Shown: one piece after another, positions 29,231-30,281 of the stretch
Position numbering within the stretch: position 1 is the stretch's first letter
Layout of the letters: every line of letters starts with the position of its first letter
Sequence record: MZ868638.1
Origin: Escherichia phage vB_EcoM-pEK20
Strand: one strand, 5' to 3'
DNA length: 64,000 nucleotides
Translations under genes and position numbers: made by a program
Notes under the pieces: generated by a model
Databases searched by the model: none
What the model saw: the letters and a program-made list of their open reading frames with translations, nothing else
Told to the model about the DNA's origin: nothing

Positions 29231-29461
29231 ATGTCTACTGAAACTATCGAAAAACTGCAGTCTGAAATCGTTACTCTGAAATCTCGCATTCTTGATACTC
29301 AAGACCAAGCAGCTGCTATCCAGCAAGAATCTCAGCAACTTGGTAGTGCTCTTGCTAAAATCGCTAATCTGGTTGGTATCACTGGTGAATCAGTTAAGAT
29401 TGATGACCTGGTAGAAGCAGTACGTGAACTTGTTAAAGCTGAAACCACAGAAGAAGAATAA
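29231..29461 (+). CDS. 57A: tail fiber assembly chaperone gp57A
   Basis: 76 aa coiled-coil, [29 protein letters not shown]...; T4 57A homolog. Confidence 0.9.
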
Positions 29462-29916
29462 TGAAATTTGAGGACTTTTCACAAGGCCTCTACGTCGCAG
29501 CTAAATTTTCGGAATTAACACTTGATGCGCTGGAAGACCTCCAGCGTAAATTAAGAATTCCTAATCCAGTACCACGTGAAAAGCTTCATTCAACAATTTG
29601 TTATTCACGTGTAAACATACCATATACTACATCTAGTGGTAGTTATTCTGTTGCCGAATCAGGACACTTTGAGGTATGGAAAACTGACGACGGCGCTGTA
29701 CTGGTTTTAGTTCTTGATTCCGAATATCTTAGATGTCGTCATCAGTATGCACGAGCTTTAGGTGCTACTCATGATTTCGACGACTACACTCCACATATAA
29801 CGTTATCATATAACGTTGGCCAACTATCATTCAGTGGTGATGTAGCTATTCCGGTTATTCTCGACCGTGAATACAAAGAACCCTTAAAACTAGATTGGGC
29901 CGAAGATCTAAAATAA
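29461..29916 (+). CDS. 57B: gp57B / Acb1-like anti-CBASS cyclic-oligonucleotide phosphodiesterase (2H phosphoesterase fold)
   Basis: 151 aa; two H-x-T/S motifs (H43-S-T and H112-I-T) typical of 2H phosphoesterases; position directly after 57A as in T4. Confidence 0.8.
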
Positions 29917-29929
29917 TTTTCACAAAACA

Positions 29930-29959
29930 GTTTACATAAGGATGATGGTGTGTTACTAT
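29930..29959 (+). promoter_or_regulatory. early promoter (GTTTAC -35, TACTAT -10) upstream of ipI
   Basis: GTTTAC-N18-TACTAT; spacer contains the inverted repeat AGGATGATGG/CTATCATCCT. Confidence 0.6.
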
Positions 29960-29993
29960 CATCCTATCAAATAAACAACCTCAAGGAAATAAA

Positions 29994-30281
29994 ATGAAAA
30001 CCTATAAAGAATTTATATCACCTGTTGCTAACGTTTCTACTCTGACTGAAGCAACCCTTACTTCCGAAGTTATTAAAGCAAACAAAGGCCGTGAGGGTAA
30101 ACCAATGATTAGTCTAGCTGACGGCGAAGAAGTAAAAGGTACTGTTTACTTAGGAGACGGGTGGTCCGCTAAGAAAGATGGCGCTACTATTGTTATCTCT
30201 CCGGCTGAAGAGACTGCACTGTTTAAAGCTAAGCACATTTCTGTAGCTCAGCTTAAAATTATTGCAAAAACTCTTCTGTAA
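29994..30281 (+). CDS. ipI: internal protein I (capsid-packaged, injected; anti-restriction in T4)
   Basis: 95 aa; N-terminal capsid targeting sequence MKTYKEFI...TLTE with a gp21-type L-x-E cleavage site; position next to 57B as in T4. Confidence 0.8.
   Translation: MKTYKEFISPVANVSTLTEATLTSEVIKANKGREGKPMISLADGEEVKGTVYLGDGWSAKKDGATIVISPAEETALFKAKHISVAQLKIIAKTLL

Follow-up and report, generated by a model that had tools for sequence, protein, structure and literature searches.

Neighbouring Acb1 and internal protein I genes in an RB69/HX01-like coliphage genome and what their adjacency may indicate

Two small genes lie side by side at positions 29461–30281 of the 64,000-nucleotide stretch of Escherichia phage vB_EcoM-pEK20 (MZ868638.1) that was analysed here and is called the window throughout. 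The initial annotation read them as an anti-defence pair, an Acb1-like phosphodiesterase encoded by gene 57B followed immediately by internal protein I, and took the pairing as a reason to expect more of the same from the genes just downstream. The locus raises the question of whether both products are what they appear to be, and whether their being neighbours carries any information about the genes around them.

Comparative analysis revealed that the region consists, almost certainly, of two ordinary, orthologous T-even counter-defence genes, acb1 and ipI, in an RB69/HX01-like genome of the genus Mosigvirus. The two genes, and the fact that they adjoin, have already been published, the T4 orthologues have been characterised biochemically and structurally, and both genes are annotated in RB69, where 57B still bears the outdated label "RNA ligase". 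The result confirms the standard T-even counter-defence set of Acb1, IPI and IPII in this Mosigvirus, and it matters little as a discovery.

The segment 28400–33400 of the window showed 99.5% DNA identity to Escherichia phage HX01 and 99.4% to vB_EcoM_JS09, which belong to the family Straboviridae, Tevenvirinae, genus Mosigvirus (RB69 group). Judged by this sequence, the window phage can be placed in the genus Mosigvirus as an RB69/HX01-like coliphage. The gene order in the window, 4 – (homing endonuclease) – 2 – 3 – 1 – 57A – 57B – ipI – trna.4 – trna.3 – trna.2, agrees with that of T4 and RB69 except for small insertions. Gene 57A, which encodes a tail-fibre assembly chaperone of 76 aa (29231–29461, + strand; Pfam GP57, E 5.9e-23; PHROG tail fiber chaperone), is followed by acb1 (gene 57B; 151 aa) at 29461–29916 and by the complete ORF of ipI (95 aa) at 29994–30281. 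Both ORFs are on the + strand, and the interval given for the two neighbours in the initial annotation proved exact.

Homology searches supported both assignments. The 57B product matched the Pfam family Acb1 (PF23474) over profile positions 1–144 of 144 with an E value of 1.3e-58 and 197.3 bits, the curated cut-off being 27 bits, and its residues 9–148 could be aligned with the Acb1 structures 7T26/7T27 of the PDB (E 1.1e-58). No Pfam family besides Acb1 was found for this product at E 0.01 or better. The ipI product matched the Pfam family IPI_T4 (PF11634) over profile positions 1–76 of 76 (E 1.1e-49; 166.7 bits; cut-off 25 bits), while its residues 20–95 aligned with positions 1–76 of the chain in PDB 2JUB, the NMR structure of the 76-residue mature T4 IPI* (E 2e-41). 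Pairwise alignment with the T4 proteins had been proposed as a check on the first reading. This alignment gave 85% identity between the 57B product and T4 gp57B/Acb1 (NP_049750; 129/151 residues, gap-free), and 87% identity between the IPI precursor and T4 IPI (NP_049749).

Transcription units and the adjacency of acb1 and ipI

The statement that ipI follows 57B immediately holds in that ipI is the next gene; what it passes over is a spacer of 77 bp between the two, which contains a promoter-like site and a hairpin (29930–29965, + strand). These elements were located by a promoter scan, a pattern search and fold-energy calculation. The site itself, GTTTACA-N17-TACTAT at 29930–29959, resembles a T4 early-type promoter, and it is overlapped by a hairpin with a 12-bp stem at 29939–29965 (dG -16.8 kcal/mol, z -3.4). 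The same three approaches located a second such element just 3' of ipI at 30285–30324 (+ strand), in which GTTTACA-N17-TATAGT at 30285–30314 is overlapped by another hairpin with a 12-bp stem at 30295–30324 (dG -17.7 kcal/mol, z -4.0). This second site is a putative promoter for trna.4 and the genes that follow it. Across the window, the pattern GTTTAC-N16-19-TANNNT occurred at 19 sites, 17 of them on the + strand, compared to 4 expected. T4 carries the same promoter/hairpin motif ahead of its ipI with another stem sequence. The exact T4 late promoter TATAAATA was absent from the 77-bp spacer before ipI, and the nearest + strand copies could be seen at 28869, within gene 1, and at 32640, ahead of an ORF of 208 aa.

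At its 5' end, gene 57B is tied to the preceding genes. Its ATG overlaps the stop codon of 57A in the sequence TAATG (29459–29463), and because of this overlap 57B can be regarded as coupled to the 1–57A unit. Since ipI has an early-type promoter of its own in addition, 57B and ipI are predicted to be separate transcription units and not one operon.

The motifs that flank ipI resemble the PeSL promoter/stem-loop cassettes, through which genes of T4-type phages are shuffled (Arbiol 2010, PMC2839356; Comeau 2014, PMC4122927). As in those cassettes, hexamers of the early-promoter kind lie over a stable hairpin on either side of a small accessory gene, the region is a variable one, and it is at these points that relatives have gained or lost cassettes. 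The stem sequences of the PeSL of RB49/phi1 are unlike the window stems. Two relatives carry additional genes at this point which are absent from the window. RB69 has a leader-bearing internal-protein gene of 108 aa (RB69p156; 3628–3954 of the RB69 stretch compared) between 57B and ipI, and phage 308Ecol101PP has a leader-bearing gene of 87 aa (2951–3214 of the stretch compared) just 3' of ipI. Such extra genes fit a picture in which cassettes are gained and lost at promoter/hairpin junctions. The adjacency of 57B and ipI is not fixed, because in RB69 another internal-protein gene stands between them.

The adjacency may accordingly be read as inherited synteny of two independent units, with little predictive value for trna.4, trna.3, trna.2 and ORF151c and with no island beyond the internal-protein cassettes. 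The overlap of the 57B start with the 57A stop, the bracketing of ipI by its own promoter and hairpin motifs, and the extra internal-protein genes of RB69 and 308Ecol101PP all speak for this reading, and so does the gene content downstream. There, orthologues of T4 trna.4 (84% identical), trna.3 (39%; 120 aa) and trna.2 (81%; 96 aa; 30899–31189, + strand) are followed by a counterpart of RB69 ORF151c (171 aa) and then by two tRNA genes on the + strand, Met-CAT at 31789–31863 and Arg-TCT at 31867–31943. RB69 has the same pair of tRNA genes as the window, whereas T4 carries eight tRNAs and segB where the window has only these two. Pfam gave no informative match for the trna.4, trna.3 and trna.2 orthologues, ORF151c or the 208-aa ORF, and a sequence search of the PDB with the trna.3 and trna.2 orthologues, ORF151c and the 208-aa ORF gave nothing below E 0.1.

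Against this reading, the clustering of phage anti-defence genes has been argued in print with this very pair as the example, Acb1 beside ipI in T4 being held to mark an anti-defence island (Hobbs et al. 2022, PMC9117128). Furthermore, the two Ip loci have been proposed as hotspots of anti-GmrSD proteins (PMC12373910). A literature search on the function of trna.2, trna.3 and trna.4 returned only one finding, published in 2026: T4 Trna.2 and one other phage protein were enriched when the defence reverse transcriptase DRT1 was pulled down, a lead that was left at that point (PMC13275509); it is a hint of a defence-related interaction. Weighing both sides, we hold inherited synteny of independent units to be a strong contender whose probability falls a little short of one half.

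When the locus was assessed as an anti-defence island, two adjoining genes, acb1 and ipI, qualified, and the next four genes were those with no informative match. The description of the region as an anti-defence locus can be kept for the two genes themselves, with the published island argument behind it, and with the qualification that the two are separate units whose adjacency varies. The higher expectation placed on the genes just downstream found nothing to build on in trna.4, trna.3 and trna.2, and may hold for one gene, the 208-aa ORF, which lies 2.4 kb from ipI. Further injected inhibitors may reasonably be sought at the internal-protein loci of Mosigvirus, the leader-bearing 208-aa protein being one candidate.

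Internal protein I and its predicted target

The region is read here as two ordinary counter-defence genes, and of these ipI shows the features of a packaged T-even internal protein. The first 19 codons (29994–30050, + strand) encode a leader, MKTYKEFISPVANVSTLTE, of the T-even capsid-targeting type, starting with MKTYKEFI. Residues L17-T18-E19 form a prohead-protease site of the [LI]-x-E type directly ahead of ATLTSEV, which begins at residue 1 of the solved mature protein, and the alignment with the mature chain in 2JUB starts at residue 20. The capsid-targeting sequence MKTYKEFI...LTE reported for ipI in the initial annotation was thus found in place. The rest of the gene (30051–30281, + strand) comprises the mature IPI* of 76 aa, to which the IPI_T4 match at E 1.1e-49 belongs, and the stop codon. 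T4 IPI is likewise a precursor of 95 aa with a 19-residue leader ending in [IL]-T-E ahead of ATLTSEV; the T4 leader ends in I-T-E, while that of the window ends in L-T-E. The same type of leader could be seen on the IPII orthologue and on three other ORFs in the window.

The mature IPI* matched T4 IPI* at 71/76 residues (93%). Five substitutions separate the two mature regions, V42A, I47V, A84V, H86Q and N93T in the direction from T4 to the window, and four of these have been published as differences of RB69; alignment of RB69 IPI* with T4 IPI* in this study also gave four differing mature positions, in agreement with PMC6024577. IPI of the window is identical to that of HX01 and differs by one residue from that of RB69 (NP_861845), residue 42 being A in the window and V in both T4 and RB69. 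The V42A exchange may alter the specificity of IPI* towards GmrSD, which is the weaker of the two novel readings offered by this analysis. IPI was present in 291 phage records.

From the published work on T4 and RB69 we infer how IPI is probably packaged, cleaved and directed against GmrSD in the window phage. The ipI gene would be transcribed from its own promoter to give the 95-aa precursor, and the N-terminal capsid-targeting sequence of 19 residues would direct this precursor into the scaffold core of the prohead. Cleavage by the prohead protease would take place after L17-T18-E19, and the mature IPI* would be injected with the DNA and inhibit a type IV restriction endonuclease of the GmrSD type. 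In the literature, T4 IPI owes its packaging to the leader; the protein is processed, enters the host together with the injected DNA, and blocks GmrSD of E. coli CT596. Ip1, Ip2 and Ip3 each have a GmrSD variant of their own that they inhibit (PMC12373910).

T4 and the window phage differ in the DNA that IPI has to protect, since T4 DNA bears glucose and DNA of the window type bears arabinose. Mosigvirus DNA contains arabosylated 5-hydroxycytosine and not glucosyl-hmC (PMC13390438; first described in PMC6024577), and because of this modification the natural GmrSD targets of the window IPI may differ from the T4 case. It could even be argued that IPI in an arabinosyl-modified Mosigvirus is a mere basic, DNA-associated head filler with no restriction target, kept from an ancestor with glucosyl-hmC. 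The lack of glucosylation in Mosigvirus DNA (PMC13390438) fits such an origin, as does the fact that the enzyme with which T4 IPI was characterised has been described as acting specifically on glucosyl-hmC DNA. We consider this very unlikely, however. The CT596 GmrSD has been reported to cleave RB69 DNA, and RB69 IPI has been reported to prevent the restriction (PMC6024577); BrxU, an enzyme of the GmrSD family, cuts arabinosylated Mosigvirus DNA (PMC13390438). In addition, the mature protein keeps its 93% identity with T4 even though ipI is non-essential and lies in a region of internal-protein gain and loss, which argues for continued selection on the gene.

The reading of IPI as a restriction inhibitor is preferred here. 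Because the CT596 enzyme reportedly cuts RB69 DNA and RB69 IPI reportedly prevents this restriction, the mechanism carries over to the RB69 group, and it would by extension apply to the window phage, for which the exact target range of the variant is a prediction. The UTI89 GmrSD has been reported to restrict RB69 although RB69 carries IPI (PMC6024577).

Acb1 and the RNA ligase label

The HxT motifs on which the first reading of the 57B product was based could be confirmed in the translation as H43-S-T45 (KLHSTICY) and H112-I-T114 (TPHITLSY). Two such motifs alone are weak evidence because the product contains five histidines. The weight comes from homology: T4 gp57B carries one additional N-terminal Met, so that each window residue number equals the T4 number minus one, and in the gap-free alignment H43, T45, H112 and T114 fall on the T4 catalytic tetrad H44/T46/H113/T115. 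H43 and H112 can be taken as the catalytic histidines because they align with T4 H44 and H113. The assignment of the product as an Acb1-like 2H phosphoesterase stood up as well, with the full-length Pfam match and the 7T26 alignment described above.

T4 gene 57B was identified as Acb1, an enzyme that degrades 3'3'-cGAMP, by activity-guided fractionation, and its tetrad was defined structurally, H44A/H113A being a dead mutant (Hobbs et al. 2022, PMC9117128). The same study named the base-stacking residues Y12/W74/F107/W147 and the adenine-reading E141 (PMC9117128). The counterparts of the stacking residues, Y11, W73, F106 and W146, are all kept in the window product, and so is E140, the counterpart of E141. 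In total, 9/9 published functional residues were conserved (four catalytic and five substrate-contact residues). T4 Acb1, from a Tequatrovirus, and the product of this Mosigvirus differ by 22 substitutions with 0 at the published functional residues, and they have in common the HxT/HxT tetrad, the four aromatic stackers, the adenine-reading glutamate, the C-terminal lid and the position after 57A. The C-terminal segment DWAEDLK also occurs in both. One residue separates the window product from RB69 gp57B (NP_861847; F70 vs L), and one from HX01 gp57B (V64 vs I). Acb1 of Erwinia phage FBB1, the protein in 7T26/7T27, has both HxT motifs conserved; it is more distant than T4 and served only as a structural reference. 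Identity to solved or characterised proteins was 62–85%. The alignment of residues 9–148 with 7T26 suggests a 2H phosphoesterase fold that is compact and bears a C-terminal lid.

The enzymatic activity of the window Acb1 is predicted from the published T4 and FBB1 work. The gene would be translated as the last cistron of the 1–57A–57B unit to give the 2H phosphoesterase of 151 aa. By homology, this enzyme would bind the CBASS cyclic di- and trinucleotides with one or more adenosines in them (3'3'-cGAMP, cUA, cAAA), the ligand being held in a U-shaped pocket shut by the C-terminal lid. Catalysis on the HxT/HxT tetrad would be of the acid-base type and metal-independent; it would cut 3' of adenosine and pass through a cyclic-phosphate intermediate, and the signal would be destroyed before the CBASS effector could kill the cell.

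The 2H fold is found in LigT-type enzymes too, which counts for a different reading, namely that gene 57B encodes an RNA ligase, or a LigT-like 2'-5' RNA ligase or cyclic phosphodiesterase acting on RNA ends, and not an anti-CBASS protein. "RNA ligase" is indeed the description of PHROG 755, to which the product belongs, and the name it bears in RefSeq for HX01 (NC_018855), T4 (NC_000866) and RB69 (NC_004928). This reading is extremely improbable: Pfam Acb1 covers the full length at 197 bits with a cut-off of 27 and with no rival Pfam family at E 0.01, the T4 orthologue (85% identical) is a cGAMP degrader identified by its activity whose deletion sensitises T4 to CBASS (PMC9117128), the residues that stack on the substrate and the glutamate that reads adenine are all kept, and "RNA ligase" is an automatic family name. 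The annotation supported for the 57B product is "anti-CBASS protein Acb1", and the label in RefSeq and PHROG 755 is outdated. The GenBank record OR062945 already labels the product "cyclic phosphodiesterase".

A phage with an intact acb1 is predicted to resist many CBASS systems, a point of use for phage therapy and for host-range prediction. It is also predicted to be sensitive to guard systems of the Panoptes type (PMC13577387).

Other leader-bearing and putative counter-defence reading frames in the window

Five ORFs in the window start with an internal-protein leader. Besides ipI and the 208-aa ORF, these are an ORF of 93 aa at 41260–41541 (+ strand; PHROG "internal head protein"), an ORF of 104 aa at 42200–42514 (+ strand; a PHROG family of unknown function), and an ORF of 100 aa at 42541–42843 (+ strand), which is a T4 IPII orthologue with 94% identity over 86 residues and a divergent C-terminus. 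The latter three form a second internal-protein locus.

The unnamed 208-aa ORF is located at 32683–33309 (+ strand), 2.4 kb downstream of ipI, and belongs to PHROG 2280 (unknown function). It begins with a leader of the internal-protein type, MYTFNEFLAETEVITE (MYTFNEFLAE). Homologues of the protein were present in 143 phage records, and among those listed every annotating record calls it "hypothetical protein". Alignment of five members of the family, down to 36% identity, revealed that the leader keeps the pattern M-x-x-[FY]-x-E-F-[IL]-x-E-[ST] and that E16-A17-G18 is invariant after [ILV]-x, which resembles a protease site. An exact copy of the late promoter TATAAATA lies at 32640–32647, after a terminator-like hairpin and 36 bp upstream of the start of the ORF.

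Because of its leader, its protease-like site and its late promoter, the 208-aa protein is a plausible candidate for an unrecognised packaged protein. It is the only downstream gene with positive evidence for an injected protein, and it is the only lead of this analysis that is even mildly new. The full proposal, that it may be an internal protein packaged in the capsid and injected and, as the analogy of Ip1–3 suggests, may inhibit another host defence, for example a variant of GmrSD, is put forward tentatively and is rather doubtful. Assignment of the protein as an orthologue of T4 IPIII was rejected, since the leader alone aligned (E 0.001 over 26 residues).

A further ORF at about 44600–44845 (+ strand), with the likely start MSIEDIK and about 81 aa, contains the hairpin domain of Pfam Acb2/Tad1 (E 2e-17). 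We presume that it may be the counterpart of the T4 cyclic-nucleotide sponge Acb2 (T4 gene vs.4). If it is Acb2, the phage would counter cyclic-nucleotide signalling with a nuclease and a sponge alike. In the same part of the window, regB at 45201–45659 is flanked by a protein of 120 aa with a glycine-radical domain at 44024–44386 (+ strand; Pfam Gly_radical, E 2e-18) and by a protein of 155 aa with a Macro domain at 46547–47014 (+ strand; E 2e-6).
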